From Escherichia coli (GTDB taxonomy: Bacteria; Pseudomonadota; Gammaproteobacteria; Enterobacterales; Enterobacteriaceae), in the NCBI RefSeq assembly GCF_044324785.1, contig NZ_CP172127.1: a DNA stretch of 64,000 bases; one strand, written 5' to 3'. Made by a program: the position numbers and the translations under genes. Under the pieces are notes generated by a model. That model was given only the letters and a program-made list of their open reading frames with translations. It searched no databases and had not been told where the DNA came from. Positions 3,240-56,268 of the stretch are shown piece after piece; position 1 is the first letter of the stretch; the number at the start of each line of letters is the position of its first letter.

Positions 3240-4792
3240 ATGACCAGTCTTCAGCAGCGCGCGGAGCTTCATCGCCAAATCTGGCAAATTGCTAACGATG
3301 TCAGAGGTTCGGTCGATGGATGGGACTTTAAGCAATACGTTCTGGGCGCGCTTTTCTACCGTTTTATCAGCGAAAATTTTTCCAGCTATATTGAAGCCGG
3401 TGATGACAGCATCTGTTATGCGAAACTGGATGACAGCGTAATTACTGATGACATTAAAGACGATGCCATCAAAACCAAAGGCTACTTCATCTACCCAAGT
3501 CAGCTTTTCTGCAACGTAGCTGCGAAAGCAAATACCAATGACAGACTGAATGCAGATTTAAACAGCATCTTCGTTGCTATCGAAAGTTCTGCTTACGGTT
3601 ACCCTTCAGAAGCTGACATCAAAGGTTTGTTTGCTGATTTCGATACCACCAGTAACCGCCTGGGTAACACCGTTAAGGATAAAAATGCCCGCCTGGCCGC
3701 GGTTCTGAAAGGGGTTGAAGGATTAAAACTTGGTGACTTCAACGAACATCAGATTGACCTGTTCGGCGATGCCTATGAGTTCCTGATTTCTAACTATGCG
3801 GCGAATGCTGGTAAGTCAGGCGGCGAGTTCTTTACACCGCAGCACGTCTCTAAGCTGATTGCACAACTGGCTATGCACGGGCAGACCCACGTTAACAAAA
3901 TCTACGACCCGGCAGCAGGTTCCGGTTCGCTGTTGTTGCAGGCTAAAAAACAGTTCGATGACCACATCATCGAAGAAGGCTTTTTCGGTCAGGAAATCAA
4001 CCATACGACCTATAACCTGGCGCGTATGAACATGTTTTTGCACAACATCAACTACGACAAGTTTGATATCAAGCTGGGCAATACGCTGACTGAGCCGCAC
4101 TTCAGAGATGAAAAACCGTTTGATGCCATCGTTTCTAACCCACCGTATTCGGTGAAATGGATTGGCAGCGATGATCCGACGCTGATTAACGATGAGCGTT
4201 TTGCCCCAGCTGGCGTCCTGGCCCCCAAATCAAAAGCTGACTTCGCGTTTGTATTACATGCGCTGAACTATCTTTCTGCCAAAGGTCGTGCTGCGATTGT
4301 CTGCTTCCCGGGCATTTTTTACCGTGGCGGCGCGGAGCAGAAAATCCGTCAGTATCTGGTTGACAATAACTATGTCGAAACCGTGATTTCACTCGCACCG
4401 AACCTGTTCTTTGGCACCACCATTGCCGTAAATATTCTGGTGCTGTCTAAACATAAAACGGATACCAAAGTTCAGTTTATTGACGCCAGCGAACTGTTCA
4501 AAAAAGAGACTAACAACAACATCCTGACCGATGCCCATATAGAAAAAATTATGCAGGTATTTGCCAGCAAGGAAGATGTTGCTCATCTGGCGAAATCTGT
4601 TGCGTTTGAGACTGTTGTCGCGAATGACTATAACCTGTCGGTGAGCAGCTATGTGGAAGCGAAAGATAACCGCGAAATTATCGATATCGGTGAGCTGAAT
4701 GCTGAGCTGAAAACCACGGTCAGCAAAATCGACCAGTTGCGCAAAGATATTGATGCGATTGTGGCTGAAATTGAAGGCTGCGAGGTGCAGAA

Positions 4793-4796
<4 letters not shown>
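3240..4796 (+). CDS. hsdM: Type I restriction-modification system methyltransferase subunit HsdM (type IC-like, EcoR124/Ecoprr family)
   Basis: 518-aa ORF with AAGGA ribosome-binding site; N6-adenine methyltransferase motif NPPY ([11 protein letters not shown]) and AdoMet motif DPAAGSGSL. Gene order M-S-R with hsdS starting inside the hsdM stop (ATGA) matches type IC organisation. Confidence 0.9.
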
Positions 4797-5962
<1,166 letters not shown>

Positions 5963-6083
5963 TTGACCATTATTACAGACCGGACCATCTTAATATCCGG
6001 TCAGTATATAGACTATTTTTTACACGCCGGAAGTCACCATTAACCCCCTTCCGGCCCTTGCCAGACGGCACAAAGGATGCGCT

Positions 6084-9000
6084 ATGACTCATCAAACACA
6101 CACCATTGCTGAATCCAATAACTTTATCGTTCTTGATAAGTACATCAAAGCTGAGCAAACAGGCGACAGCTATCAGAGCGAATCGGACCTGGAACGTGAA
6201 CTGATTCAGGACCTGCGGAATCAGGGCTATGAATTTATATCCGTAAAATCACAGTCGGCGATGCTGGTCAATGTTCGACAACAGGTTCAGAACCTCAATG
6301 GTGTGGTGTTTAATGACAGCGAATGGCGACGTTTCACGGAGCAGTATCTGGACAACCCGAGCGATGGTATTCTGGATAAGACCCGTAAAATCCATATCGA
6401 CTATATTTGCGACTTTATTTTTGATGACGGGCGTCTTGAGAATATCTATCTGATAGATAAAAAGAATCTCATGCGCAACAAGGTGCAGATTATCCAGCAG
6501 TTTGAACAGGCAGGTTCTCACGCTAACCGTTATGACGTCACGATCCTGGTTAATGGCTTGCCGCTGGTGCAAATCGAACTGAAAAAGCGCGGCGTGGCGA
6601 TTCGTGAGGCTTTCAACCAGATACATCGTTACAGTAAAGAGAGTTTTAACAGCGAAAATTCTCTGTTTAAGTATCTGCAACTGTTTGTCATTTCTAACGG
6701 CACCGATACCCGTTACTTTGCCAACACCACAAAGCGTGATAAAAACAGTTTTGACTTCACAATGAACTGGGCGAAATCAGACAACACGCTGATTAAAGAC
6801 CTCAAAGATTTTACCGCTACCTTTTTCCAGAAACATACTCTGCTTAATGTTCTGGTGAACTACAGCGTGTTCGATATTAGCCAGACGCTACTGGTGATGC
6901 GACCGTACCAGATTGCCGCCACCGAACGAATCTTATGGAAAATCAACAGCTCCTATAAAGCGAAAAACTGGTCTAACCCCGAAAGTGGTGGCTTTATCTG
7001 GCACACTACCGGTTCTGGTAAAACACTGACCAGCTTTAAAGCCGCGCGTCTGGCAACAGAACTGGACTTTATTGATAAAGTCTTCTTCGTGGTCGACAGG
7101 AAAGATCTCGATTACCAGACCATGAAGGAATATCAGCGTTTTTCGCCAGATAGTGTTAATGGCTCGGAAAATACCGCAGGCCTTAAACGAAATCTGGATA
7201 AGGACGATAACAAAATTATCGTCACCACTATTCAGAAACTTAATAACCTGATGAAAGCAGAAAGCGACCTGCCTGTATACAATCAGCAAGTGGTGTTTAT
7301 ATTTGATGAATGCCACCGCAGCCAGTTTGGAGAAGCGCAGAAAAACCTGAAGAAGAAATTCAAACGCTATTATCAGTTTGGTTTTACCGGTACCCCTATT
7401 TTCCCGGAAAACGCTTTAGGTTCAGAAACGACCGCCAGCGTATTTGGTCGTGAATTGCATTCATATGTGATTACCGATGCGATTCGAGATGAAAAAGTGC
7501 TTAAATTCAAGGTGGACTATAACGATGTGCGGCCACAGTTTAAGTCTTTAGAGACAGAAACCGACGAGAAAAAACTGAGTGCGGCTGAAAATCAACTGGC
7601 GTTCCTTCATCCCATGCGTATTCAGGAAATCACGCAATATATCCTGAACAACTTCCGCCAGAAGACCCACCGTACTTACCCCGGCTCCAAAGGTTTTAAT
7701 GCCATGCTGGCAGTAAGCAGCGTGGATGCCGCGAAAGCCTATTACGCGACATTTAAACGGTTACAAGAAGAAGCCGCTAATAAATCTGCAACTTATAAAC
7801 CACTGCGTGTTGCAACAATCTTCTCCTTTGCCGCTAATGAAGAACAAAATGCCATTGGTGAAATTTTCGATGAAACTTTTGATACCAGCGCAATGGACAG
7901 CAGTGCTAAAGAGTTTCTTGACGCTGCAATTCGTGAGTATAACAGCTATTTTAAAACTAACTTCAGCACCGACAGTAACGGTTTTCAGAACTACTATCGT
8001 GATTTAGCCCAACGGGTTAAAAATCAGGATATCGATCTGTTAATTGTCGTGGGGATGTTTTTAACCGGCTTCGATGCTCCAACATTGAACACGCTATTCG
8101 TCGATAAAAACTTGCGTTTTCACGGTCTGATGCAGGCATTTTCCCGCACCAACCGCATTTATGACGCCACTAAAACCTTCGGTAACATTGTCACTTTTCG
8201 GGATCTGGAACGCTCAACCATTGATGCCATAACGCTGTTTGGTGATAAAAATACCAAAAATGTGGTGTTAGAAAAGAGTTATGCAGAGTATATGGAAGGT
8301 TTTACTGATGCTGCCACCGGTGAAGCCAAACGCGGCTTTATGGCAGTAGTTTCAGAACTGGAACAACGGTTCCCTGACCCTGCCAGTATTGAAAGTGAAA
8401 AAGAGAAGAAAGACTTCGTAAAACTGTTTGGTGAATACCTGCGTGCCGAGAACATTCTGCAAAACTATGATGAATTTGCCACGCTGAAAGCCCTGCAACA
8501 AATCGATCTTAGCGATCCTGTTGCGGTAGAAAAATTCAAAGAAGAACATTATGTGGATGATGAAAAGTTCGCTGAATTACAAACGATTCGTCTCCCTGCT
8601 GATCGCAAGATTCAGGATTACCGTTCAGCCTATAACGATATTCGTGACTGGCAGCGCCGTGAGAAAGAAGCTGACAAAAAAGAAAAATCAACCACCGACT
8701 GGGATGACGTGGTTTTTGAGGTCGATTTGCTGAAGTCTCAGGAAATAAACCTGGATTATATCCTTGGACTGATTTTCGAACACAACAGACAAAACAAAGG
8801 TAAGGGCGAAATGACCGAAGAGGTCAAACGCTTAATTCGTTCAAGCCTTGGGAACCGTGCCAAAGAAGGATTGGTGGTCGATTTTATTCAGCAAACGAAC
8901 CTGGATGATTTGCCGGATAAAGCCAGCATCATTGACGCGTTCTTTACCTTTGCTCAACGCGAACAGCAACGTGAAGCAGAAGCATTGATCAAAGAAGAAA

Positions 9001-13182: not shown

Positions 13183-14001
13183 TTATGAGGCCAGTTGCAA
13201 CATGTTTTCAGCCATCACCCACAGGGCGCGGTTGAGCCTGACATCACCGTCGATGCCTTTAATGGCGCGGGTGTGCGTGCGACCACCTTTTGCCGTGCGC
13301 CCGTTTAAACCACCTTTGATCAGGTTCTCCTGAATACGCTGGTAGGTCGTCCACAGATCGCCGGATTCATCCTGCCAGCGGCGGGGAGCCAGCAACTGGG
13401 ATTCCGTCACTGGCTGGTGCTCTTCGCCAAAGCGGTACGTCAGCGCCGCCTTTGCCAGCGCCTGTTGCGCAGGGGGTGGCAGCATCAGCGACTGCATGGC
13501 ATCGCGTTTCTCTTCAACCTGGTCAAAAACACTGAGGACTTCATAAGCGCCTTCAATCACTTTCTCCACCACATTGCCTTTATGCGGTACCCGTACTTCA
13601 CCAAACGACTCGCCGCAGACCAGTCCGTTACAACAAACAGATCGGAACAGCCCTGGCAGCATCTGATATGAACTGGAACCGTCATGGCTGTTGAGAAGAA
13701 TAATTTCCGGCACCTGGTTGCGATTGATCTGGTCTTCCCGGCGCAGACGCAGCATGTGTTTTGTATGCTCACGTTTACCCACATCACGAACGCGGGTCTG
13801 GCAGGCAAAGAAAGGATGAAATCCTTCACGCTGGAGGTTATCGAGCAGAGTAATGGTGGGAATATAGGTATAGCGTTCGCTGCGTGATTCGTGCTTATTT
13901 TCCCCAAATACGCTGGGGACATACTGCATCAGTTCGTCATGAGTTAATGGGCGATCGCGACGGATTTGATTTACGTGACCAAAGCGGCTGGCTAATTTCA
14001 T
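13183..14001 (-). CDS. CP4-like island conserved protein (272 aa; tentatively DUF932/YfjQ-YafZ-like)
   Basis: Size and position in a CP4-57/CP4-6-like gene block; family assignment is from memory and unverified. Confidence 0.45.
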   Translation of the reverse strand: MKLASRFGHVNQIRRDRPLTHDELMQYVPSVFGENKHESRSERYTYIPTITLLDNLQREGFHPFFACQTRVRDVGKREHTKHMLRLRREDQINRNQVPEIILLNSHDGSSSYQMLPGLFRSVCCNGLVCGESFGEVRVPHKGNVVEKVIEGAYEVLSVFDQVEEKRDAMQSLMLPPPAQQALAKAALTYRFGEEHQPVTESQLLAPRRWQDESGDLWTTYQRIQENLIKGGLNGRTAKGGRTHTRAIKGIDGDVRLNRALWVMAENMLQLAS

Positions 14002-14187
14002 GGTGAATTCCTTAATAAAGAATATAAAAAACAGGCCGCATCTTCTGAAAAATTGCGGCTAATTTAATGCGTGATTAAAACGGACGGTAGTATAGGTGGG
14101 ATAAAATAACAGGTACGTGCAGATATTAAATTACATTCCGGCAGTGAATATATGAAAGTGATATAGTGCTGAAATAATACATATCTG

Positions 14188-14218
14188 AATTCTCCCGGTG
14201 ATAGTCACCGGGAGAATT
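14188..14218. terminator. Perfect 14-bp-arm palindrome (AATTCTCCCGGTGA-TAG-TCACCGGGAGAATT) downstream of the 284-aa gene
   Basis: Read directly; lies 19 bp after the stop of 14237..15091 on the minus strand; weak U-tract. Confidence 0.45.
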
Positions 14219-14236
14219 TAAGTTTGAAATGACACC

Positions 14237-15091
14237 TCAACCACGGGATAATCTTGTTTCTATTCCCTGAACTCTTTCGTCTATTAACCTTTCAATAACA
14301 GATATTTTATCTGACTTGTAAAATTTAACCAGAAAATCCAGACGCTCTTTATGCGTATCACTGATAGACTCCCTTTCCCGTTTTTCAGAAAGTTTACGTC
14401 TGAAGTTTTTTTGGTAAAACGCTTTATTTATTTTCTTTACCGCTTTCTGCTGGAGGTCATCATCCGCTGACCATAAATCCAGCATGGCATAAACGGCGTG
14501 ATAGGTTTCTACACTATTCAGTGGTTCCGGGATTTGAACGGGGTCTAAATGGTTTCCTGTATTACTACCGTGCTCTTTCTGGAATTTATTAATGTAATTA
14601 TAAGCCCATATACAGACTTCGTCATTATCCTCATTAAGCCAGCGTAATTTTATTCTCTGATGTTCATTTGCCCTCCAGAATACAAGCCTCTCATATAGCC
14701 ACTGTCTCATCAACGGTGCCTGATTAGTCTCAATATTAATATAGTCCAGTAATGCAACGATGATTGAGTATCTTTCGCTATGACTTGCAGGAGAATCTGT
14801 TATTCCGGCTTTCTGATACCAGTTAATGTTTAAATTTGTGCCCAGCTTTTCGTTAATTGACTCCATACAGCGGTAATCAAGACACATCACGCCCCATAGC
14901 CAGAACGTCGCTCTTTCATTTTCTTTTAACCAACTAAAATATTTCTCCGGCAGAAGCATCGTATTAATCGACAGCTCCAGTGAGCGAATAAAATTACTTC
15001 GCTGAATGGGATCGGGATACCCGACCTCGAGGGCTGTATTAATAATTCTCTCCGAAAGGAGATGTATCTGGATTGTTCCCGTCAAACGCAA
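14237..15091 (-). CDS. Hypothetical protein (284 aa), AT-rich, no recognisable motifs
   Basis: ORF-track start is TTG (GGGAG lies 11 nt upstream); the first in-frame ATG is at codon 45, so the true start is uncertain. Preceded by a ~690-bp ORF-free AT-rich region. Confidence 0.45.
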   Translation of the reverse strand: MRLTGTIQIHLLSERIINTALEVGYPDPIQRSNFIRSLELSINTMLLPEKYFSWLKENERATFWLWGVMCLDYRCMESINEKLGTNLNINWYQKAGITDSPASHSERYSIIVALLDYINIETNQAPLMRQWLYERLVFWRANEHQRIKLRWLNEDNDEVCIWAYNYINKFQKEHGSNTGNHLDPVQIPEPLNSVETYHAVYAMLDLWSADDDLQQKAVKKINKAFYQKNFRRKLSEKRERESISDTHKERLDFLVKFYKSDKISVIERLIDERVQGIETRLSRG

Positions 15092-15783
15092 ATTGATTTG
15101 CTCCCTGAATGTTTTTCCTGATGTACCAGAAAAGAAACCTGCTGGTTCGGATGTCCTTCACTGCTATTGATGAGCGCACATTAACGGCCATTGTTCTACC
15201 TCGTCATCCTTGTTAAATCAGCAAAAAGCAATAGCGTAATTATGACGTGTTTTTGAAGTAAAACCGTAGCAATAAATCAATAAAAGTGGGAAATGCGTAG
15301 TAATATCGTGTTATTCCATAGTAATAGAGTACCATTAACGTAGTTTTTTATTTATCACCATACTCACAGCTTCCGCCCGTAGAAAACGGCTGGATAGTCT
15401 TAAATTTTTCCACGTATAGCCCTGGTGGCTTTACGGGTGAAACCTCCCAGGATAACGAGTTGACATCTGGAAGATGTCATTCATGACCGCAACTCATAGA
15501 TTAGATCAATGTATTAATTATAACTTAAGAGTGAAATCCTTTATCTTCAGGAACAGATAATTAACTACGAACACCAGTAAATACCGGGCTTCTACTCTTT
15601 TTATCACCCTTTCTTTATGAATCAACATTGCCGGTATTAATATTATGTTTATCACTCATTCATTAGATTCAGCATATAGAGGGATGACACCAGAGACAGG
15701 GAAAAGTAATCCAGATCGGCATAGCTCAGTGAAAAGTTACTACAGCACTTATGGATATGTAACCAACCACAAGGAACTGAAGC

Positions 15784-16398
15784 ATGAAACTGAATGAACG
15801 ATATGGCAAGCCTAATGCACACTATATGAAACGTCTGGAAGAGATTACTCGCTATGCGATGGATGATTACGCCAGAATACTGGCTTTCAGAGTGGATTTA
15901 TTACTGCCAGTGGATAATAGCCATAAAGGGTATGACTCAGCGGTTATTACCCGTTTTATAGCCTCACTGAAAGCACAGATAGCCGCATATTTACAACGGC
16001 GCAGGAGAGACGGTAAACGTGTTTACCCCTGTAAGCTGCGATATGCATGGGTAAGAGAATTTGGTGAACTGAATGGCAACAAGCATTATCACATGCTGTT
16101 GTTGGTTAATCGGGAAGTATTCAGGAATACCATGCTGAATACGGAGAATTCAGCGCAACCTCGCGGATTGCTGGTGGGAATGGTAGCGCGAGCATGGGCT
16201 GTGGCGCTTAGACGTACCGAAGATATGGCAAATAAAGTCCCCTTTCATTTACCAGGCGTCTCTTATGAACTGGATCGCAGAAATGGCACAAATACGGACT
16301 TTTTCCGCAGCTACATATACCACATCAGTTATCTGGCGAAGGAGTACACCAAAAACCACGATGACGGTGAACGTAACTTTGGTTGTAGTCAGGGATAA
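15784..16398 (+). CDS. YagK/YfjJ-family protein (inovirus Gp2-like domain)
   Basis: 204 aa; recalled similarity to CP4-57 YfjJ / CP4-6 YagK; conserved HYHMLLL motif. Confidence 0.65.
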   Translation: MKLNERYGKPNAHYMKRLEEITRYAMDDYARILAFRVDLLLPVDNSHKGYDSAVITRFIASLKAQIAAYLQRRRRDGKRVYPCKLRYAWVREFGELNGNKHYHMLLLVNREVFRNTMLNTENSAQPRGLLVGMVARAWAVALRRTEDMANKVPFHLPGVSYELDRRNGTNTDFFRSYIYHISYLAKEYTKNHDDGERNFGCSQG

Positions 16399-16515
16399 GT
16401 AATTTATTACCGGAGAAGTGATTGTAATGGCGGAGTATGCAACATCATCTTAAATTAATGGGTTAGTGTTGCTGCTCCTGTCTTTTATCAACGTAAAGAC
16501 AGAAGGACAATCGTC

Positions 16516-16734
16516 ATGAAAAATCAACCGAATACCGATACTGACCTGATGAATGACAAACTGGTGACGATGGCATTTATTACCACGTTTACTGGCCTGA
16601 CTGACAAATGGTTTTATAAACTGATTAGTGAAGGCAAGTTTCCAAAGCCTGTCAAGCTGGGGCGTAGTTCCCGCTGGCGGGAAAGTGAAGTTAAACGCTG
16701 GCTGACGGAACGTATTGCAGAATCCCGCAATTAA
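16516..16734 (+). CDS. alpA: AlpA-family phage regulatory protein (small HTH DNA-binding protein)
   Basis: 72 aa; AGAAGGA ribosome-binding site; typical AlpA size and a C-terminal SRWRESEVKRWL motif. Confidence 0.7.
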   Translation: MKNQPNTDTDLMNDKLVTMAFITTFTGLTDKWFYKLISEGKFPKPVKLGRSSRWRESEVKRWLTERIAESRN

Positions 16735-16953
16735 TCTCCCTGACACTCTCTCTACACGCCTTCCCCGTAAGCATTAATCAGCACAAATGCTATATCAATA
16801 AGCGTCTGACAGGGCCGTTGCTGTGCATCTATCGACGCGTAACTTCATTATACCCGGATGAAATACGTTTCGTTTAACGTTGTCGAAAAATAATTAACCG
16901 GAGAATAGCCTGCTTATTTAGCAGGAATTCCCCGGATACAGCCACAGATAAAA

Positions 16954-17739
16954 TTAGGAATTAAATGTCCAGCTACCCGTATCGGTCACAATGTCAGCTT
17001 CAATGATACGGTCACACTTCATATATTTGAACGTAGCCACATCACCGAATTTATATTTAGCTGGCAGGGTTCTGTTACCGGCGCTCTCCATTTTACAGTT
17101 CCCTCTGTTTACCCGAATGGATTTCAGCACCACGTTGTCATCAGTGATAGTGAGCTGAATAACACCATATTTGGTATTCCAGCCTTCATTACTGACGGAG
17201 CTGCCGAACTGAACTTTAAATGGTGATGTCGTAGGTTGCTGTGCCTGCTGTTGTTGAGAGGGAGCAGGTTTATTTGCCTGCTGGCTACCAACGCTATTAA
17301 TGCCATTCTGAAGGAGGCTTCTGGAAACCTTAATGGTACCCGGCTTGCATGATACTGTGCTGGTTTCCTGCCCCATTGCATTCATGACAGTGTAATAAGC
17401 ATCACCTGTACCATCATATTCTGAGTAATTGACTGCAACCGCGCCTTCGATATCTTCATTTTCTCCACGTAATGTGAAAGAAGCGGTTCCTGCTCCCGGA
17501 TTAGCCGCCAGAGTCTGTTTCGCTTCGCCGGAAGGAATATCCAGTTTAATAACAGAGCCGCTCTCTTCGGAGTCACCGCCAGGATTTTCAAAACTGATAT
17601 AAACGGTATTGCTGACGTGGCTGAGTGTCATTTGCTCACCGTTATCAAGCAGACATTGCAGGTCATAGGCCCCGACAGCATAAGCAGGGTGGAATGCAAA
17701 TAAAGATACAAACAATACAGGTATAATGATTGGTTTCAT
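16954..17739 (-). CDS. Secreted/periplasmic hypothetical protein with signal peptide and Gln/Pro-rich linker
   Basis: N-terminus MKPIIIPVLFVSLFAFHPAYA-VGAY fits a Sec signal peptide with AYA cleavage site; two predicted domains separated by SQQANKPAPSQQQQAQQPTT; 12 bp downstream of the GTPase gene on the same strand. Confidence 0.6.
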   Translation of the reverse strand: MKPIIIPVLFVSLFAFHPAYAVGAYDLQCLLDNGEQMTLSHVSNTVYISFENPGGDSEESGSVIKLDIPSGEAKQTLAANPGAGTASFTLRGENEDIEGAVAVNYSEYDGTGDAYYTVMNAMGQETSTVSCKPGTIKVSRSLLQNGINSVGSQQANKPAPSQQQQAQQPTTSPFKVQFGSSVSNEGWNTKYGVIQLTITDDNVVLKSIRVNRGNCKMESAGNRTLPAKYKFGDVATFKYMKCDRIIEADIVTDTGSWTFNS

Positions 17740-17751
17740 TAAGCACTTTCC

Positions 17752-18765
17752 CTATCCAAAAAAATGGTCCCAGGCATTACCAGCCCACTCGATAAGTTTG
17801 TCTTTCCCCTTTCGGGTAAGCTCTTTGACAGGCTTTGGTAACGGAAAAGAATCAATAACGTCGTCGAGTATCCCGGAGATTACGCTGCCAAAGCCGTTTT
17901 TTGCTTCCGTCTTTACTTCGTCGGTTTTGAACTCATCCTTAACCTGCGAAGCCGTGCTACTTTTAGCCCGATCAGGCAAAGCCCGAATAATAGTCTCTAC
18001 CAGACGAAGAATGTTGTAGCCCTCATCGGCGGAGACAGGTGTCACCGGATAGTGCGTAAAACCAAATCGTTCAGTAATGTAGGCTTCTTTCTTTTCGATG
18101 TTGATGCGCTGTGCAGGAGATGGCTGATGCAGATGAGTATCCCACTCGCGGAATGGCTCAATTTTATCAACCTGGTTAAGGACGAATAAAACGCGCTCAC
18201 CCCCACCAGCAGGGAGCAGAACATTGTTGTAGAAATGCTCATCCGCAGAAAAGGCCCGATCGTCTCCTTTTATTACCCACAGGATGAGATCCAGGGAGGG
18301 AAGCAAATTACGGTATAAATCTTCATACTCCTTATCCCGCCGGGCATTCTCACCGACACCAGGTATATCAATGATCTTCAGCGAGTGTTTGCCGAAGCGT
18401 ATACGCAATTCCTGAACTTCACGAGTACATGCCTCAACGTCGCTAACTGCACAAACCTCCCCTTTAAACAACGCATTACATACACTACTTTTCCCCGCGC
18501 CTGTTTTTCCCATGACACCAATTACGGGTTCATAGTCGATGGCTTCACTGATTTTGTTCAACAGCTTTTCCCGCAGTGGCTGAGGGAAAATATCAAGAAT
18601 ATCCCTGATGTCAGGTATGTGCGGCTTGCTATCACCTTTTTGCTCGTTGCTACCATTACGTTCTGGAAATATATTGCTCCACATTCCCAAAATCCCGCCT
18701 TCCCTTCTGGTGACGCCACTGGCATCAGTAATCATCCGGCCTTCGCCCTTTACCGGGTCATCCAT
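17752..18765 (-). CDS. YeeP/YkfA/YfjP-family GTPase (50S ribosome-binding GTPase domain)
   Basis: 337 aa; P-loop GVMGKTGAGKSS, DxxG-type switch II IIDIPGVGE, and NQVD (NKxD) motif; AAGGAG ribosome-binding site 9 nt upstream of the ATG. Confidence 0.8.
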   Translation of the reverse strand: MDDPVKGEGRMITDASGVTRREGGILGMWSNIFPERNGSNEQKGDSKPHIPDIRDILDIFPQPLREKLLNKISEAIDYEPVIGVMGKTGAGKSSVCNALFKGEVCAVSDVEACTREVQELRIRFGKHSLKIIDIPGVGENARRDKEYEDLYRNLLPSLDLILWVIKGDDRAFSADEHFYNNVLLPAGGGERVLFVLNQVDKIEPFREWDTHLHQPSPAQRINIEKKEAYITERFGFTHYPVTPVSADEGYNILRLVETIIRALPDRAKSSTASQVKDEFKTDEVKTEAKNGFGSVISGILDDVIDSFPLPKPVKELTRKGKDKLIEWAGNAWDHFFG

Positions 18766-23539: not shown

Positions 23540-25174
23540 ATGATCACTGGTGACTTAAAAAGTAAAATCGACGGCCTGTGGGAAGATTTCTGGGTGGGTG
23601 GTATCACCAACCCGCTGACCGTAATCGAACAGATCACCTACCTGATGTACTCCCGGATGCTGGATACCCAGGAACAACGCGACGAGAAGCGTAAACAAAT
23701 CGCGGGTATTGATTTTAAACCGCGTTTTGCGCCAGAACAGCAGGAGTTCCGTTTCAGTCACTATAGCAACCTTGGCTCGGATGAGATGATGGAAGTGGTG
23801 CGCGATGGCGTATTCCAGCATTTTCGTCAGCTCGGCCTGGCTGATACATCAAAGGTGACGCTGCTGGGCAACTTTATGAAAGATGCCCGTCTGGAGATTG
23901 TTAAGCCGTCATTGCTGACCAAAGCGGTTGAGGTGATCAAAAACCTGCCATTGGATCGCGGCGATACCAAAGGCGACCTTTACGAATACCTGTTAAGCAA
24001 GCTGACCACTGCCGGGATCAACGGCCAGTTCCGCACGCCACGCCACATTATCCGCACGATGGTTGAAATGATGGAGCCGAACCCGGCCCGCGGCGAGATG
24101 ATTTGCGATCCGGCCTGTGGCACCGGTGGTTTTCTGGCAACCAGCTATGAATATCTGCTGGAGAAGTACAGCTCGCTGGAATCCATTCATACTGAGATTG
24201 GCACCAACGAACGTGGCGAGCTGGAAGAGCAAAAAATCTTTACCGGCGATCTGCTGATACCGTGGCGTAACCATGTGGATAACAATATGTTCCACGGTTA
24301 CGACTTTGATACCACAATGCTGCGTATCGCCGCCATGAACCTGATTATGCACGGCGTGGAAGCGCCGGATATTCACTATCAGGACACCATGAGCCAGAGC
24401 TTCAGCACTAACTTCCCTCAGGCAAGTAAAAACGCTTTCAACCTGATTCTGGCGAACCCGCCGTTTACCGGTTCACTGGACGAGGAAGATATCGACTCCA
24501 CGCTGTCGGCAATGGTGAAAACCAAAAAAACTGAACTACTGTTCCTGGCGCGTATTCTGCAAATGCTGAAAGTGGGCGGGCGCAGTGCCACTATCGTGCC
24601 GCAGGGCGTGTTGTTTGGCTCCAGTAAGGCGCACCAGTCACTTCGCAAAACGCTGGTGGAAGATAACCAACTGGAAGCGGTGATCAACCTGCCTTCCGGT
24701 GTATTTAAGCCTTACGCTGGCGTGGCAACGGCTATCCTGATCTTTACCAAAGGCGGTCAGACGGACGAGGTCTGGTTCTACGATCTGCAAAATGATGGCT
24801 ACAGCCTGGATGACAAGCGTAACCCGATTAAAGACAACGACCTGCCGCATCTGCTGGCAAGCTGGAAGCATTACCGTACTTTGCGTGGTTTGCCGGTAGA
24901 TAACTTTATGGGTGAGAAGTTAGCCTCGTTGCTTAAACAGCAGTACCCGGAAGGGATTGATGCTGGCGTTGATTTTAAAGATCGCACTCAGTCGGCGTTC
25001 GTAGTTCCAAAAGAAGATATTGCTGCGCAGAAATACGATCTCTCTATTAATCGTTATAAAGAAGTGGTGTATCAGGCGGAGGAATATGAAGATCCGAAGG
25101 TGATACTGAAACGATTAAAAGATCTGGAAAAAGAGATTCTGGCGGATTTGGATGAGCTGGAGGGGATGCTGTGA
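23540..25174 (+). CDS. hsdM: Type I methyltransferase subunit HsdM (second system)
   Basis: 544 aa; FRTPRHI, AdoMet-binding DPACGTGGF and catalytic NPPF motifs. Confidence 0.9.
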
Positions 25175-26349
25175 GTTGGCCGATGGTGAAGTTAGGCGAA
25201 ATTTTTACTATATCTCGAGGGGGGTCTCCAAGACCTATTCAAGATTATATTACTGACTCCTGTCATGGAGTAAATTGGATAATGATTGGTGATACTGAGC
25301 CAAATTCAAAATACATTAGACATACAGCAAAAAAAATAAAGTTTGAAGGAGTGAAAAAATCCAGAAAGGTCTACCCTGGAGATTTATTACTTACAAACTC
25401 TATGAGTTTTGGGCGTCCATATATACTTGATGTTGAAGGATGTATACATGATGGATGGTTGGTTCTAAGTCCTAAAAATAATCAAATACATATTGATTAT
25501 TTTTATCATTATTTAAATTCTCCAGCTGCAAAAATCATCATATCAAACAAGGCTGCTGGTGCAGTTGTAAAAAATTTGAACTCAGATATCGTGAGAAACT
25601 TGGAAATTCCGTTCCCTCCATTTGCGGAACAGGTAAGGATAGCTTCAACTCTCGATAAAGTCGATGGCATACGTCAAAAACGCGACCAAGCCATCAAACT
25701 GGCTGATGATTTTTTGCGTGCTACGTTTTTAGCGATGTTTGGTGATCCTGTTGAAAACCCGAAGAGATGGGATGTTGCTTCTTTGTTAGAATATGGTTCA
25801 TTTAAAAATGGAATGAATTTTACGAAAGGTGAGTCAGGCTCTGTACTGAAGTGCCTGGGAGTTGGCAATTTCAAATCACTAGCAACGATTACCTGTATGG
25901 ACAATATCGGTGAAATTGAATTAAATACTCTCCCTTCAGATGATTATCTTTTGAAAGATGGTGATATCGTCTTTGTCCGTTCTAATGGTAATAAAGCCTT
26001 GGTCGGAAGATGTCTTACTATTTATCCAGGCAAAGAGAAAGTTACATTTAGTGGATTTTGTATCCGCTACAGAATAGAAAATACTGCAATCACCCCAGAA
26101 TATCTTAACTTTCTCTTCCGTACACCTTCAATGAAACAGCAAATGTTAAGCGGGGGGCAAGGAGCGAATATTCAGAATATTAGCCAAGGTACCTTATCCG
26201 CACTCAGGATACCAGTCCCTCCCTTAGAAAAACAACAGGCATTTTCTAAAGTAGTGAGTTTTCACTCGGCACTAATGGAAAAACTAGATATTAATACAGT
26301 TGAAATAGAAGATATGTTTGACTCAATCAGTCAACAATATTTTAATTAA
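25171..26349 (+). CDS. hsdS: Type I specificity subunit HsdS (second system)
   Basis: 392 aa; start overlaps the hsdM stop (GTG at 25171, or ATG at 25183); two AT-rich variable regions plus conserved HsdS helices. Confidence 0.85.
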   Translation: MSWPMVKLGEIFTISRGGSPRPIQDYITDSCHGVNWIMIGDTEPNSKYIRHTAKKIKFEGVKKSRKVYPGDLLLTNSMSFGRPYILDVEGCIHDGWLVLSPKNNQIHIDYFYHYLNSPAAKIIISNKAAGAVVKNLNSDIVRNLEIPFPPFAEQVRIASTLDKVDGIRQKRDQAIKLADDFLRATFLAMFGDPVENPKRWDVASLLEYGSFKNGMNFTKGESGSVLKCLGVGNFKSLATITCMDNIGEIELNTLPSDDYLLKDGDIVFVRSNGNKALVGRCLTIYPGKEKVTFSGFCIRYRIENTAITPEYLNFLFRTPSMKQQMLSGGQGANIQNISQGTLSALRIPVPPLEKQQAFSKVVSFHSALMEKLDINTVEIEDMFDSISQQYFN

Positions 26350-26370
26350 TCAGGATTATTATTAATAAAA

Positions 26371-27057
26371 ATGAAAAAAATTGATATGCGAATACTGGTC
26401 CTGTTTATACTGGCCGTAATGCCTTTGTTGCCCTATCTTTATATTTTTCATGAAGGTTTTTCCCATAAGTCTGATGATTGGGGTAATTTTGGTTCTTTTA
26501 TGGGAGGAGCCGTTGCTCCTTTCCTTTCGGTACTGAGTATAGTATTGGTTTTGAGAACAATTGAATTAACTCAAAAGAACCATGCCGAGCAACTATCACA
26601 AGTAACAAAAGAGCATAACTACAATAAATTCAATGATCTGTGCGATTTCCTTGAAAAATCTATATTAAAGAGTTGGTTGGTTAATGATAAAGAAAGACGA
26701 CAACAGGTTATCCAGTCTTTAACAATAACAACTATTGGTGATGTCGTTTTTCGTTCTAATGAAAATGCGACACCTGAAGAACAACGTCGGTATGCAGAAG
26801 AAAATGCACAAAGAGTATTGTCATTCATGTCAGATGATATCAGAGAAATAATAGTTTGCCTCGATTATTTTTGTGACTTTATCCTGGATGATAAAAATCA
26901 TGATACTGAATTCATGAAAAATATCGCAGAAATAAGGCTGGATAATCATGTTCGATTCATTATATCTCTATATGTTTACCTAAATAATAAAAATTTAAAT
27001 CTATTATTAAATAAAAAATGGAAGAGCTTTAGACCATCTATAGACGAGTTGGTATAA
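26371..27057 (+). CDS. Hypothetical 2-TM membrane protein (228 aa), same strand and 22 bp downstream of hsdS
   Basis: Two predicted N-terminal transmembrane helices (ILVLFILAVMPLLPYLYIF; FMGGAVAPFLSVLSIVLVL) followed by a ~165-aa soluble domain; very AT-rich. Confidence 0.6.
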   Translation: MKKIDMRILVLFILAVMPLLPYLYIFHEGFSHKSDDWGNFGSFMGGAVAPFLSVLSIVLVLRTIELTQKNHAEQLSQVTKEHNYNKFNDLCDFLEKSILKSWLVNDKERRQQVIQSLTITTIGDVVFRSNENATPEEQRRYAEENAQRVLSFMSDDIREIIVCLDYFCDFILDDKNHDTEFMKNIAEIRLDNHVRFIISLYVYLNNKNLNLLLNKKWKSFRPSIDELV

Positions 27058-27097
27058 CTATTGTCCCGCCAATTGTTTTATAATTGGCGGGATGTCA

Positions 27098-30000
27098 TTA
27101 TTTTTTGAACTCAACCAGTCTCTTATATTGGGGGGTATTAATTAACTTTTTCTTAGCTTTGATAATATCGACCAAACAGATTTCTATTTCCTCAGCACAT
27201 CCTCGTTGATTATCCATAATCAAACTGATAAGTTCTAATGTTTGAGATGGAAATTTATTTGGTATCTCTGACTCGTATAATTTTTTCAGTGTATAATGAG
27301 GCCATTCAAATGGAATGATCCACGGTTTTACAGTATCGAATATATCCTGAAACCTATCCTGGCCCGCAATACAGAGTTGCACTAAATTCTCTGAAATTCC
27401 CGGCGTCCTTAACTTTTGAGATTTTGGCCATATCTTCTTTAAAAATATTTTTATACAGTTATCCCAATATTCAGAATATTGTTCTCCTGAGCTTTCAATT
27501 GCATCTACAAGAGTATTAGTTGAGATTATCAGGCTCTCCGATGGAAGATTTCTAAACGCTTTTTGATAATCGTCAAGAACATAGTCTTTTGTCGGTTCAA
27601 GTGCAGCATATGTCAAAAAGATAGTATATTGTTTTTTAGCATCAGTATCTCCAAGATCTTGATAGTGTTCCGCTGTTTTCAAAAAAGCTTGTTTAAATGC
27701 AGCAAGCAATGGGGCATAAAGACGAGGGGTCCATAAGAAACCAGGCCATACTGATTTTGCTTCAAGAAAATTACTATCCCAAATAAATAATGGTAGAAGG
27801 TACTTTTTCGCCCAATTTGTGTCAACTCTGAATAATGGGATCAAATTTGAGGCTAAAATAACTCTGGAATTTCTGAAAGAGATATTATGGGTGTCACATA
27901 GCTTTGTGAAAAAGACTTTCAATTTATCTGGTATGCCCTCATTATCATGCGGCTTACCATTGAGCCATATATTTATTAATGCTTGTGTAATATTTCCTAC
28001 AGGATGATTTATAGCTTGTATTATTGATTTATAATCATCTGTTTCATCGTAACTAAAATCTATAATACGCTGACAATATGTAGTATAAACATCATTCAAC
28101 TCACTCATTCCTGTGGAAATTTTCGCTAACCATTGAGCGAGGCTGTGCTGAATCTCAGGGAATAAATCATCTGGAATATTTAATAATAATGGTCCTATTT
28201 CTTGCCAGGACTCCTGAATCAGGTCTTTATCACACCAAGTCTGTAAACCTGAACGCCAATATTTGCATGGCCAAATATCCTCCATGGCTAATTCGCGAAG
28301 CACACAAACAATCATCGGTAAGTTTTGTTTACATATTTCGATCCAGTTATCACGTTCAAACGGAGATGATTTCTTATTATCAGCCCTTTCTCTTAACCAG
28401 TTGATGATGCCGTCCTTTGTATCTGGGACCATTTCTGTAATTATTTCCTCTTCAAAATCGGGATCTCCTGTTCCACTCATCCAATGCGAAAATTCGTCTC
28501 TTTCATTTGTGGTCAATTTCCAGTAAGGATGTTTTTCTGATAAAAAATCCAATTTGTTCTGTGCATTTATATTGAGCTTTACACCTGAAAATTGTAGTTT
28601 TGATAAGAACAACCATATATTTCTTTCGACTATATTTTCCCATTCATTCTCATTAATAGAAATATTGAATAATTCCTGTGAATATCCTAGTGTTATTGCA
28701 TTTTCAAGCTTTCGTTGTTCAATGGCAGTTAGTGTTTTACCTTGCAAAACGAAGAGTCGGCAAACTTCACGATGAGTATCAATAGCCCACAACCAATAGC
28801 CATTTTGTTCCAGTAATAGATTCACCCATTCTTTAGCATCAATGCATTCATTATAACTGGCAGAAAAAATGACCAAACGCTTAAATACTGGATATGGAAA
28901 TGACCACCAATTTAAAGCAAGTTTTTTAGCTTTGTTTTTATCTATTTCATAGATTTGCAACCAAGAATCTCTCAAAAGTTCAATTAGTTTCACCCAATTA
29001 CGATAACCTCTATTTTGCCAATGAGGCGTAATTGATGGTAAGTCCCAAAAAGATCGATCACTTGCACTTATGGAATTATCATTCAGTTCAAATTGTAAAT
29101 CCATCGCATCAAGAAGTAATTGTTGAAGATCATCAAACAAGGATGGCAAGATTTCCTTCCATATTGATTTATTTTCTAAATCTTGTAGCCAATAAAGATC
29201 TGTTGATATATTTAATTCATGCCTTACAGATTGTGAAATATTTTTTTCATTTTGGGATGATTTATTAAAATTTAGTTGAAAAGGTTGTTGCAGGATAAGG
29301 GTAGGCGCTAAAATTTTTCTTAGCGCTAACCGGCAAGCCATATTGAAATTGCCATGTTGAAATTGATCTATCCAATAATTATTTTCATATACAGATGAAT
29401 TGGTCCCTATTCTTCCTGCTAAGAATAAACGCCAAATAGCTCGTAAATTCTGAGATGGGATCGCATGTAGTCCTTCTTGCTTGATACGTTTGAGAGACTG
29501 CTCCTCATTGTTTCTTTCTAATCGTTCAATCTCACTCAACCTATTACTTATTAAATTTGATAACTGGGGATGCAGTTTTCCCCCTTGCTTTGCTAACCAA
29601 ATGATTAAGTCAACGTTACCAATATGTTTTATCAGCCATAAACAAATATATACCATAACAGAATCCCACTGACAAAATTCGCCACCAAAAGAAGCTAAAC
29701 TCATTCGTGGTGAAAGTTTGTATGAGGAAGGGCGATTAATCAGGCTAAATTGAAGATTAGGATCAAATTCAGAATGGGCCGGGGTATTAAAGCGAGGTAG
29801 ATCTGGATATCTATAAGATTTTTTTTCAAATTCCCATAACCAACTTAGTGTGGGAGCAGGATTCATTTCTGCCAGGCGTTTTGCGGGCTTACCGGAATTA
29901 TCACTTAATGCCCATAAAACCCTTCCAACAAAATTATCCTCTTGAGTACTTGTCGAAGGATGGGCAATTACATATTGGGCTACAATTCTTTCTTTACCCA

Positions 30001-30889
30001 TACTTCCATTGTTATATATTTCTCCCCATATTTTTAATGTCTCATGAAGTAATTCATGCTTCTTAGTCGTTTTGTACAAAACAGGAATGACCCCTTTGGC
30101 TTCCCAAATTTCAGCCGTTGTAGATTCTTCATTTGGTTTATAATCTGCAAAGGCATATGCTTGAGGGGTATATTCGCCTAACATCCTATCTGCTGCTAAA
30201 GCATCCATCATATAGCGTAATACAGGATCATTAATACTATATCCTATAAAACAAACAACATAGTTTCTAAATAGTTCACTTACAAATCTGGCAGCCCATC
30301 TTTCTGTTAAATAAGCACATCCGAAATCACCACTGGTAACTACCAGACGGTTCAACTCTGTATGATTTTTTTTATCATGAGGTAATATTCCGTGCAAGTA
30401 AACCACTCCATTCCATCTACTATTTTTTGGAACAGGTAACATAGGTGCCAAATATGATGTTAGTTTCTTCTCCATATTTTTCGCAGCTATGTCAAAAAGA
30501 TGATCAAAATTTGTGGTGACAAGTCGTATGCGCCCACCTTGATCTTGAGATAATTGTAAGAGAGCATTATGAGTTGTTAGGGCATTTTTTCTTCGAACCT
30601 TTGGTTTCAATATCTGAGACAATGCATAGCGTACAGTTTGTTTATTTCCTACTATTCTTCTCTCAAGAAGTTCTAATGTTGTATCATATTGGTAAGCTTT
30701 ATAGGCGGCTTCTTCGAGAGCATTCCGTGTTTCACCGATTCTTTGATATATGTTGTCAACCAAATCTCCAAACCCCGGTAATCCAGCAGGATATGAAATT
30801 CCCGCTCCGCAGAAGAATACAACTTTCCCCTCTTCGTGTGCTTGTAGTAATGAATCGGGAATATCTGGACCATTAGTAATAAACTGCAT
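27098..30889 (-). CDS. Large SIR2-domain protein (1263 aa): N-terminal sirtuin-like NADase domain plus ~1000-aa helical C-terminal region; candidate defence-associated sirtuin (DSR-like) single-gene defence protein
   Basis: N-terminal Rossmann motif VVFFCGAGISYPAGLPGFGDL (GAGIS), TTNFDHLF (TTN-D motif) and a conserved His in VYLHGIL, as in SIR2/DSR/ThsA NADases; no similarity to housekeeping CobB is evident; monocistronic on the minus strand. Confidence 0.7.
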   Translation of the reverse strand: MQFITNGPDIPDSLLQAHEEGKVVFFCGAGISYPAGLPGFGDLVDNIYQRIGETRNALEEAAYKAYQYDTTLELLERRIVGNKQTVRYALSQILKPKVRRKNALTTHNALLQLSQDQGGRIRLVTTNFDHLFDIAAKNMEKKLTSYLAPMLPVPKNSRWNGVVYLHGILPHDKKNHTELNRLVVTSGDFGCAYLTERWAARFVSELFRNYVVCFIGYSINDPVLRYMMDALAADRMLGEYTPQAYAFADYKPNEESTTAEIWEAKGVIPVLYKTTKKHELLHETLKIWGEIYNNGSMGKERIVAQYVIAHPSTSTQEDNFVGRVLWALSDNSGKPAKRLAEMNPAPTLSWLWEFEKKSYRYPDLPRFNTPAHSEFDPNLQFSLINRPSSYKLSPRMSLASFGGEFCQWDSVMVYICLWLIKHIGNVDLIIWLAKQGGKLHPQLSNLISNRLSEIERLERNNEEQSLKRIKQEGLHAIPSQNLRAIWRLFLAGRIGTNSSVYENNYWIDQFQHGNFNMACRLALRKILAPTLILQQPFQLNFNKSSQNEKNISQSVRHELNISTDLYWLQDLENKSIWKEILPSLFDDLQQLLLDAMDLQFELNDNSISASDRSFWDLPSITPHWQNRGYRNWVKLIELLRDSWLQIYEIDKNKAKKLALNWWSFPYPVFKRLVIFSASYNECIDAKEWVNLLLEQNGYWLWAIDTHREVCRLFVLQGKTLTAIEQRKLENAITLGYSQELFNISINENEWENIVERNIWLFLSKLQFSGVKLNINAQNKLDFLSEKHPYWKLTTNERDEFSHWMSGTGDPDFEEEIITEMVPDTKDGIINWLRERADNKKSSPFERDNWIEICKQNLPMIVCVLRELAMEDIWPCKYWRSGLQTWCDKDLIQESWQEIGPLLLNIPDDLFPEIQHSLAQWLAKISTGMSELNDVYTTYCQRIIDFSYDETDDYKSIIQAINHPVGNITQALINIWLNGKPHDNEGIPDKLKVFFTKLCDTHNISFRNSRVILASNLIPLFRVDTNWAKKYLLPLFIWDSNFLEAKSVWPGFLWTPRLYAPLLAAFKQAFLKTAEHYQDLGDTDAKKQYTIFLTYAALEPTKDYVLDDYQKAFRNLPSESLIISTNTLVDAIESSGEQYSEYWDNCIKIFLKKIWPKSQKLRTPGISENLVQLCIAGQDRFQDIFDTVKPWIIPFEWPHYTLKKLYESEIPNKFPSQTLELISLIMDNQRGCAEEIEICLVDIIKAKKKLINTPQYKRLVEFKK

Positions 30890-31038
30890 CTCGTTGCCTG
30901 GTTAGTTTGTGAAATGAATTTTGATTATAAATCTTCTTTATTGGTTCATGTAAGAAATCGGCACTGCCTTTTGACCGATAGCTGATATAGTATGTCTAAG
31001 TTATGATGATATAACATTTCTTACCTTGGATAGTAACA

Positions 31039-34640: not shown

Positions 34641-34725
34641 TTGGTGCCGAAGGCCGGACTCGAACCGGCACGTATTTCTACGGTTGATTTTGAATCAACT
34701 GCGTCTACCGATTTCGCCACTTCGG
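34641..34725 (-). tRNA. leuX: tRNA-Leu (anticodon CAA), leuX
   Basis: Reverse complement reads GCCGAAGTGGCGAAATCGGTAGACGCAGTTGATTCAAAATCAACCGTAGAAATACGTGCCGGTTCGAGTCCGGCCTTCGGCACCA, an 85-nt type II tRNA with CAA anticodon and CCA end. Confidence 0.97.
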
Positions 34726-34921
34726 CACTGAAGAGGTATGCGGAAAACGTTGTGGATTATACCTGTCGCACGCCACCATGCAAGCGCCAGCTTGCTCGCA
34801 CCTCGCTAAGTGCTGAAATTTTCAGCATTGCATACAGCGATGTGTAACCTTTGTCACACTCCAGGCACCCCGCCCTGCCATGCTCTACACTTCCCAGACA
34901 ACACCAGAGAAGGACCAAAAA

Positions 34922-39994: not shown

Positions 39995-40993
39995 ATGCGC
40001 AATCACAGAATTTCTTTACAGGATATCGCTACGCTGGCTGGCGTAACAAAAATGACCGTGAGTCGTTATATCCGCTCGCCGAAAAAGGTGGCAAAGGAAA
40101 CAGGCGAGCGCATCGCCAAAATTATGGAAGAGATCAATTATATCCCTAATCGCGCTCCCGGCATGTTGTTGAATGCACAAAGTTATACCCTCGGTATCTT
40201 GATTCCGTCATTTCAAAATCAACTCTTCGCTGACATTCTCGCGGGAATAGAATCCGTCACCTCTGAGCATAATTATCAGACCCTTATTGCTAATTACAAT
40301 TACGATCGCGATTCCGAAGAAGAGTCGGTGATTAACCTGCTCTCTTATAACATTGACGGGATTATACTTTCGGAAAAATATCACACCATCAGGACGGTGA
40401 AATTTCTGCGTTCAGCCACCATTCCGGTCGTGGAATTGATGGATGTACAGGGAGAACGGCTGGATATGGAGGTCGGTTTTGATAATCGGCAGGCCGCTTT
40501 TGACATGGTGTGTACCATGCTGGAGAAGCGAGTCAGGCACAAAATTCTGTATCTCGGTTCCAAAGATGACACCCGCGATGAACAGCGTTATCAGGGGTAT
40601 TGCGATGCGATGATGCTGCATAATCTTTCCCCATTACGCATGAATCCACGCGCCATCTCATCCATTCATTTAGGAATGCAGTTAATGCGTGATGCCCTTA
40701 GCGCAAACCCGGATTTAGACGGTGTATTTTGCACCAATGACGATATTGCGATGGGTGCGCTTCTGCTGTGCCGCGAGCGAAACCTCGCCGTGCCAGAACA
40801 AATTTCCATTGCGGGTTTTCATGGGCTGGAGATTGGCAGGCAAATGATCCCAAGCCTCGCCAGCGTAATTACTCCCCGTTTTGATATTGGTCGGATGGCC
40901 GCCCAAATGTTGCTGAGCAAAATTAAAAATAACGATCACAACCACAACACTGTTGACCTCGGGTATCAGATTTATCACGGCAACACGCTTTAG
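39995..40993 (+). CDS. idnR: LacI-family transcriptional regulator IdnR
   Basis: 332 aa from [26 protein letters not shown] (HTH); the ORF track starts 10 codons upstream. Confidence 0.9.
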
Positions 40994-41070
40994 GTTATTT
41001 TCTCTTCATTACACGTATTCTCTTTGCCGGACGTTGCCTATACTCCAGGCAGGAAACTGGAGGATATCTC

Positions 41071-42573: not shown

Positions 42574-42691
42574 GTCAGACGTGATCTGTGCCCCTCACCC
42601 TAACCCTCTCCCCAAAGGGGCAAGGGGACCGTTCGAACTCGTATTTGACTTTGTCAACAATAATAAAGGGAGCTTTCGCTCCCTTGTTAGA

Positions 42692-44874: not shown

Positions 44875-45137
44875 TTTAAATACGCCCGTAAAAACTCGTC
44901 TTTTGCAGGATTTTAGCTTGTTTCATGGCTTAAACGTCATTTATTCTCTTGAGTCGTCGAAATCGTCGCTAAGATAATTATACTCAACGGATTCACCTCT
45001 CAGATTTTGTTCTGACGTGCCAATGCCGTAATAACGTTAAGATTAACACGAAGTCATCGCAACAGCGGACATGAGTTACGAAAGCTTGCAATTCTATCTG
45101 TAGCCACCGCCGTTGTCTTTAAGATTCAGGAGCGTAG

Positions 45138-46652
<1,515 letters not shown>

Positions 46653-46654
46653 TT

Positions 46655-46800
<146 letters not shown>

Positions 46801-46813
46801 AGAAGCCCCATAT

Positions 46814-55681: not shown

Positions 55682-55803
55682 GACGAACTCCTTGAGTGAA
55701 TAAGAACGTCTAAGCATTACAAATTTTACTCACAAAAAAATATCAAAAAACGCTCTTTTCACAAACTCGCCGTAAACCTTGAGTTATTTACGGCGAAAAG
55801 TCA

Positions 55804-56268
<465 letters not shown>

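Follow-up and report, generated by a model that had tools for sequence, protein, structure and literature searches.

A 64,000-nt stretch of Escherichia coli DNA (contig NZ_CP172127.1 of assembly GCF_044324785.1; hereafter the window) covers a genomic island of the leuX type and CP4 class. One gene of this island, encoded on the minus strand beside a long AT-rich spacer, is a frameshifted copy of a conserved and undescribed gene whose product is 317 amino acids (aa) long (coordinates of all features are given in Table 1). We propose, at a probability of about 60%, that the gene encodes a conserved island regulator composed of a helical N-terminal part and a C-terminal ribbon-helix-helix (RHH) domain, that this regulator controls its own transcription through an array of CTACG repeats in the spacer, and that the copy in the window has become a pseudogene. 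An original prediction, made from the letters of the window alone, had described the same place as an uncharacterised 284-aa protein preceded by a region of ~690 bp, rich in AT and free of open reading frames (ORFs).

The ORF listing of the window gives, on the minus strand at 14237-15091, an ORF of 284 codons with a TTG start. Alignment with relatives that are 98.9% identical, and that carry an intact coding sequence (CDS) of 954 nt and 317 aa (WP_053264531.1) whose ATG corresponds to window position 15191, reveals a 1-nt insertion that shifts the frame at codon 45 of the 317-aa gene; on the coding strand the site reads TCTCCTTTC in the window and TCTCTTTC in the relatives. The 284-aa ORF thus exists, but it is not a complete gene: it is a fragment of a frameshifted 317-aa gene. 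Its start had been regarded as suspect and is indeed not the native one, and homologues with an intact start, for which the original prediction had advised a search, are found in the ATG-started 317-aa CDS of the relatives. The disruption that had been envisaged in homologues elsewhere is in fact reversed, the homologues being intact and the window copy disrupted. Furthermore, 100 nt of the supposed non-coding region (15092-15191) are the 5' coding part of the gene; they are the sole decayed gene remnant there, and the spacer proper, which is AT-rich and holds no ORF conserved in other loci, is 592 bp long rather than ~690 bp.

Owing to the frameshift, any product made in the window would lack helix 1, which is conserved, and the invariant NNPD motif, and because of this loss the encoded regulator is probably non-functional, unless the extra base is a sequencing error. 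Among the 209 complete E. coli genomes matched by an 81-nt probe across the site, none has the extra G (the 12 genomes listed among these matches are all at 98.8%, over a span one base shorter than that of the window). Since none of the 209 is identical to the window across the site, the base is either private to the window strain or an error of sequencing. Programmed frameshifting was considered and rejected, as the extra base occurs in no other genome and has no slippery or stop-codon context. That an intact orphan protein starts at the TTG is very improbable: this ORF begins with 11 out-of-frame codons and misses 44 conserved residues, although a GGGAG motif 8 nt ahead of the TTG makes some truncated product possible.

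Copies of the gene are found in many other genomes. Of 5,426 complete E. coli genomes, 217 contain the 2-kb segment (identity 95-99%), and in a spread sample an ungapped 954-nt copy was recovered from 55 of the 60 genomes, one other carrying an IS1 insertion and a few being truncated; in one genome the gene is split into two CDSs. Metagenome copies that are not cut by a contig end are intact in 13 of 14 cases, and a peptide scan of a collection of genome contigs yielded two loci only. Carriers of the intact gene include Nissle 1917, ATCC 25922, clone D i2 and KO11FL.

The gene belongs to a real protein family that is unnamed and undescribed. A word-indexed search recovered only 10 clusters (43-98% identity, all 313-324 aa), and an exhaustive profile search extended the family to 332 clusters (at 50% identity) with E <= 1e-3, 172 of them with E <= 1e-10 and nearly all of them full-length (290-340 aa). 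Members occur in Klebsiella, Salmonella, Citrobacter, Providencia, Serratia, Rahnella and Proteus among the Enterobacterales and in Entomomonas, and copies at 27% identity reside in islands on large Klebsiella conjugative plasmids; none was found in a search of phage genomes. All are annotated as 'hypothetical' save one 'transcriptional regulator', in agreement with the earlier description of the protein as uncharacterised. The gene is under strong purifying selection (ratio of nonsynonymous to synonymous substitution rates 0.09, measured against an orthologue at 82% identity), and the first 33 residues, which the TTG ORF lacks, contain positions conserved down to 43% identity (K12, R15, R18, F19, F21, Y23 and I24).

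The C-terminal part of the family carries the signature of an RHH DNA-binding domain. Searches of Pfam, NCBIfam, PADLOC, PHROG and PDB sequences with the single protein returned nothing useful, and at the level of single-sequence searches (Pfam, NCBIfam, PADLOC, PHROG) the earlier impression of a protein without recognisable motifs is correct; it fails for the family profile, in which the RHH appears. Profile positions 253-298 match SvtR (2kel) with E = 0.004 and CopG weakly (E about 0.6-0.7), and among 130 family members scanned singly 22 match PF10723 (RepB-RCR_reg, itself an RHH family) and seven match RHH_1, always at the C-terminus; the profile alignments have the classic RHH appearance. 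Through its profile the family therefore displays the same succession of beta-strand, helix and helix as the CopG/Arc/omega-type repressors (RHH_1, PF10723, SvtR), and by this sequence signature it is a member of the RHH superfamily. The remaining ~260 aa form a helical N-terminal domain with no solved structural relative; the AlphaFold2 model of the intact protein reaches a predicted local distance difference test score of 95 and a predicted template modelling score of 0.85.

Several narrower assignments were tried and rejected. PF10723 comprises replication regulators of rolling-circle plasmids, and the family does not fall within it: the protein is a chromosomal-island product of 317 aa with an extra domain of 260 aa, the RHH part alone matches, it does so in the 22 members just mentioned, and the window protein scores nothing. 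MatP combines a helical bundle, an RHH and a coiled coil, but hhalign aligns residues 269-309 (the RHH) only, at 26% probability, and the site bound by MatP is a 13-bp palindrome, unlike the phased direct repeats here. The K-12 proteins YfjH (318 aa, encoded divergently from alpA in CP4-57) and YagM (284 aa, in CP4-6) are of a like size class, hold a similar island position and are likewise uncharacterised; they nevertheless have no detectable homology to the family (hhalign probability 0.4% for each), which is absent from K-12. TraY, TraM, TrwA, ParG and ParR are unrelated to the family in size and in N-terminal domain.

The second line of evidence lies in the spacer. The regulator promoter has a probable -10 hexamer, CATAAT, which in several relatives takes the extended form TGnCATAAT with no -35 element, and upstream of it lies an array of direct repeats with the core CTACG. 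In eight loci whose flanks are otherwise unalignable, the offsets 0, -31 and -74 from the proximal site are all kept at the CTAY level (the distal copy in locus L010 is CTATG), further repeats at -20 and -52 occur in several of the loci, and a CATAAT-like hexamer invariably follows the proximal repeat at a distance of exactly 20 nt. Every offset comes close to a multiple of 10.5 bp, which places all sites on the same helical face. The array is also exclusive to this gene: its strict pattern has one match in the window and none in 100 shuffles, none in IMG/VR, and 17 in a metagenome collection, all of them 47 nt ahead of a family gene. Within 318 kb of fetched related loci, three or more CTACG cluster nowhere but before the family gene, and no such cluster exists in CP4-57 and CP4-6 of K-12, where AlpA and YfjJ/YagK are present and the family gene is absent. 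In distant loci other direct repeats occupy the same place: AAATCA four times in L014 (spacings 64, 22 and 20) and TAAAACC five times in L037, the 6-mer core of the latter being at least as frequent in only one of 500 shuffles. With short repeats arrayed next to the gene and across its own promoter, the family matches the layout through which omega, ParG, CopG and Arc autoregulate.

Co-variation offers a clue to which protein would bind the array. The RHH protein is at least 43% identical in array-bearing loci and 24-31% identical where the array is absent or rearranged, and its predicted DNA-reading beta-strand follows R-x-x-[ILF]-S in the first group versus [LI]-N-T-Y-L in the other; AlpA and YagK are 57-73% and 33-38% identical, respectively, in loci with and without the array. 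Because the array co-varies with the RHH protein and not with AlpA, we favour autoregulation by the encoded protein. The chief competitor is that AlpA (an excisionase- or MerR-like activator) or YagK/YfjJ binds the array and the RHH gene is a target rather than its own regulator. Both proteins are encoded across the spacer in every locus, direct and helically phased repeats are typical of proteins of the Xis/Cox/Vis type, AlpA-type activators typically recognise phased direct repeats, and a promoter without a -35 element is compatible with dependence on an activator. This we nevertheless consider unlikely, as AlpA is equally similar without the array (L014 66%, L017 67%) and with it (L003 64%, L011 62%), YagK is ~35% identical in both groups, the K-12 islands possess AlpA and YfjJ/YagK yet no CTACG cluster, and the array is found solely ahead of the RHH family gene.

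Under the autoregulation that we favour, the RHH protein would most likely bind the phased CTACG sites as an oligomer along one face of the DNA, and the bound sites, among them those at -37, -68 and -111, would span about -111 to -33 of its own promoter, which is of the extended -10 type and is predicted to start transcription near 15232 on the minus strand. The large helical domain would mediate oligomerisation and possibly the sensing of a signal. Binding would autoregulate the regulator's own transcription, and the analogy with CopG, Arc, omega and ParG suggests that it probably does so by repression. Where no terminator intervenes, the downstream genes of many islands would also come under control, the putative targets being the DUF932 and RadC genes and the CbtA/YeeU toxin-antitoxin pair in the window, and GTPase, WYL and antirestriction genes in other islands.

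A number of observations weigh against this proposal. The protein alone has no Pfam match even at E = 10, and the AlphaFold2 monomer draws residues 244-274 as one helix with a short coil (275-277) where the ribbon should be, followed by helices at 278-291 and 295-316. The co-variation is not clean: two CTACG sites survive in L017 (31% identity), and three CTAY sites, differently arranged, in L016. The distances between sites (20-43 bp) are wider than in classical RHH operators, and the enrichment of the repeat inside the single locus is marginal, 28 of 500 shuffles reaching the window value; since k-mer enrichment within the locus is weak, the case for the array rests on its conservation across loci. 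Finally, the gene is followed by a strong hairpin, which may separate its expression from that of the genes downstream. This hairpin is the palindrome that the original prediction took for a strong terminator, and the structure itself is real (14188-14218, fold energy z = -4.8 versus shuffles); its 3' flank, CAGAUAUG, is not a run of U, however, and a terminator scan did not list it. Hairpins of different sequence stand at the same place after the family gene in L005 and L016.

The position of the gene within its islands is strongly conserved. In all sampled loci outside E. coli (eleven and a Klebsiella plasmid), at identities down to 24%, the family gene is divergent from YagK_YfjJ and AlpA, and in the Entomomonas locus an AlpA-like gene borders the spacer. 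The spacer is always long and AT-rich in the homologous loci examined (581-1654 bp, 22-40% GC), so the impression that its length is unusual was well founded. On one side of the island's divergent control region, the family gene thus comes first. The genes that follow it in its own direction vary among islands and include GTPase, WYL, DUF932, antirestriction, RadC and CbeA/CbtA genes; in the window DUF932, RadC, YeeU and CbtA genes lie downstream, and a GTPase gene follows directly in L003, L010, L014 and L017 and is not adjacent in the window. On the other side, beyond AlpA, the window encodes first a 261-aa protein and then a YfjP-like GTPase, after which the annotation of relatives shows a gene for a WYL protein. 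The 261-aa hypothetical protein (16954-17739, minus strand) has an N-terminus resembling a signal peptide and no Pfam match, and its C-terminal 90 residues match PHROG 36014 (5e-20); its gene comes directly after the YfjP-like GTPase gene (17752-18765) in the window and in E. coli-type relatives. In L014, L013 and L037 the spacer between the family gene and yagK measures ~1.6 kb (5444-7000, 4347-6000 and 6359-7964, respectively), and L037 has an extra gene for a 150-aa hypothetical protein between yagK and the spacer. Of these long spacers, L013 and L014 entered the comparison of small ORFs, and L014 and L037 the analysis of repeat motifs close to the family gene.

The same arrangement raises a second alternative, namely that the spacer is an origin of transfer (oriT) or a rolling-circle origin served by the HUH-like YagK/YfjJ protein, with the RHH protein as an accessory or copy-control factor (like CopG, TraY and TraM) or a centromere-binding one (like ParG, ParR and omega) and the repeats as an assembly site. 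YagK/YfjJ (with AlpA), the long AT-rich spacer and the RHH protein would then constitute, in CP4-type islands, a cryptic module for rolling-circle replication or for mobilisation, an idea that we hold to be improbable. Across 11 YagK/YfjJ homologues at 29-86% identity, including yfjJ (L018 7548-8174) and yagK (L019 8323-8949) of K-12, the motifs H-Y-H (HUH-like) and Y-x-x-K are invariant, and judging from these motifs the proteins may be active HUH endonucleases. This invariance and a Pfam match to REP_ORF2-G2P speak for an origin, as do the matches of 22 of 130 family members to a regulator family of rolling-circle plasmids, the retention of spacer length within 581-1654 bp, downstream antirestriction, DUF932 and RadC genes that resemble plasmid leading regions, and the GTPase gene right after the family gene in four loci. 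The spacer of L003 (Enterobacter ludwigii) contains, at 7446-7582, 3.8 iteron-like tandem copies of a 36-bp unit (93% matches), a further point in favour; neither the window nor any other spacer that was scanned for repeats has them. Copy-number gain of an integrase gene and an inovirus-Gp2-family gene, reported for isolates of Nissle 1917 from the gut (bioRxiv 10.1101/364505), also counts in favour. AlpA, a Gp2-like protein and RadC were listed as the likely core functions of a widespread island class in a study of Pseudomonas, where the class was reported to have no recognisable plasmid structure or conjugation machinery (bioRxiv 10.1101/2024.08.29.610337).

On the opposite side, no hairpin, nick-site-like element or iteron was found to be conserved across the spacers, and because no conserved origin-like structure was found we give the origin a low probability. 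The centre of the spacer evolves faster than coding DNA (45-70% identity versus ~80% in flanking coding DNA, between the window and a relative at 82% identity), the fixed distance of the array from the -10 hexamer is what an operator would show, no activity is known for YagK/YfjJ, and the GTPase is not adjacent in the window. In a comparison with partition systems (ParG/ParR/omega), the loci have an RHH protein and repeats, in some cases also an adjoining YfjP-like GTPase, and lack an ATPase of either the Walker or the actin-like type. The CTACG repeat resembles TACTACG/AC, the nick sequence of the pMV158 family of rolling-circle plasmids, a similarity that we regard as a lead only; TACTACGA, inside the array of L003 (7886-7903), is identical to that nick sequence, a coincidence of a single 8-mer that we do not use as evidence. 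An origin, were it nevertheless present, would explain how the 'cryptic prophage' islands, which are very widespread, are transferred or maintained; at present this class has no such mechanism.

For the remainder of the spacer, the original prediction had offered a small RNA, an H-NS-silenced promoter or gene debris as contents. A promoter is present, and its outstanding feature is the conserved, phased, operator-like array rather than any trait particular to H-NS. GC content is ~38-40% in the region up to the gene at 15784 versus 51-52% in neighbouring island genes, and the 37-38% GC of the spacer region, set against ~51% for the genome, is compatible with H-NS binding; silencing by H-NS is likewise compatible with a GC content of 37%. 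A small RNA or structured leader was rejected: the Rfam scan that had been recommended finds nothing in the spacer (at E <= 1, 13900-16900 has only a chance miRNA match on the hairpin, and a scan of the whole window at gathering thresholds has nothing in that region), the terminator scan finds no terminator-like site in the spacer, the centre is less conserved, and the yagK-side leader shows no excess structure (z = +0.26 versus shuffles). A hidden small protein was rejected as well, since a six-frame, all-against-all comparison of 12 spacers gave matches between close pairs only, and in all frames, with no conserved small ORF.

Across divergent loci only two elements are conserved in the spacer, the CTACG repeats and a mid-spacer element (ATAATATTAATACCGGCA in the window) that recurs in the same orientation in five otherwise unalignable spacers. 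Read in the yagK sense as GYCGGTATWAT, the latter may be the -10 of a yagK-alpA promoter, with a predicted start of transcription near 15650 on the plus strand and a predicted leader of ~135 nt. Directly upstream of yagK no shared motif is convincing, the one candidate being this ATACCGRC element further out.

Further observations concern the window and its relatives at large. A tRNA-Leu(CAA) gene at 34642-34726 on the minus strand is the likely border of the island, as in the leuX type. Other patches of low GC content lie at 25001-31000 (34-37%) and 54001-56000 (30-38%), and the minus strand carries matches to the Ysr276 antisense RNA (193 bits, 45699-45893) and the Magnesium-II riboswitch (126 bits, 63589-63704). 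The core genes valS, pepA, lptF and lptG, within 40000-50000, reach at most 97.9% identity to any of the 5,426 complete E. coli genomes, which suggests that the host belongs to a somewhat divergent Escherichia lineage. Locus L038 (NZ_AP023207.1, 'plasmid' pMTY18781-2, 94 kb, typed as non-mobilizable) contains the whole island together with the chromosomal genes nanC, nanM, fimB and fimE, and the record is probably a mis-assigned fragment of a chromosome.

Table 1. Features of the regulator locus in the window (positions in the 64,000-nt stretch)
Feature	Position	Strand	Remarks
Inverted repeat, perfect 14-bp stem, 3-nt loop	14188..14218	-	19 nt past the stop codon; terminator-like
Full gene remnant	14237..15191	-	native ATG 15191, stop codon 14237-14239; conserved 317-aa gene (type WP_053264531, 'hypothetical protein') with a frameshift
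TTG ORF, 284 aa	14237..15091	-	11 out-of-frame codons (MRLTGTIQIHL), then native codons 45-317
RHH coding region (predicted)	14261..14386	-	native residues ~269-310; beta-strand ~270-276 (KRERESI), helix A 278-291, helix B 295-310
N-terminal fragment ORF, 50 aa	15039..15191	-	native residues 1-44, 6 out-of-frame codons and stop
Frameshift site	15058..15059	.	plus-strand GG in the window versus single G in all relatives (alignment)
Shine-Dalgarno sequence GAGG	15199..15202	-	precedes the native ATG by 7 nt; identified by reading the sequence
True intergenic region	15192..15783	.	592 bp, 37% GC; between the divergent regulator gene and the yagK/yfjJ-like gene
-10 hexamer CATAAT	15239..15244	-	probable -10 of the regulator promoter; spacing to the proximal repeat unchanged in all eight subfamily loci
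Direct-repeat array, consensus wwRCTACG	15265..15382	-	CTACG at 15382-15378, 15343-15339, 15300-15296 and 15269-15265; CTATG at 15321-15317
Mid-spacer element	15629..15646	-	consensus ATATTAnTATACCGRCA; window, L005, L008, L010 and L011
YagK/YfjJ 'inovirus Gp2 family' gene	15784..16398	+	divergent partner; PF11726 4e-38, PF23343 2e-7; HYH and YxxK motifs
AlpA-family regulator gene	16516..16734	+	downstream of yagK, same orientation; 57-73% identity across all loci

At the level of annotation, the '284-aa orphan' should be recorded as a pseudogene in which a frameshift has broken a 317-aa gene, and 100 nt labelled 'non-coding' as coding remnant. At the level of biology, the control region of CP4-type islands turns out to house a regulator that is ordinary in kind but so far undescribed, and whose architecture and operator layout are unusual. 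These islands, which carry integrase, AlpA, YagK/YfjJ, DUF932, antirestriction, RadC and CbtA/CbeA genes along with defence and virulence cargo, are among the commonest integrated elements in Enterobacterales, and their control is largely unknown. The 332-cluster family is likely a DNA-binding regulator at their divergent control region, and the phased CTACG array is a candidate operator that can be tested in model strains with an intact gene, such as Nissle 1917 and ATCC 25922.

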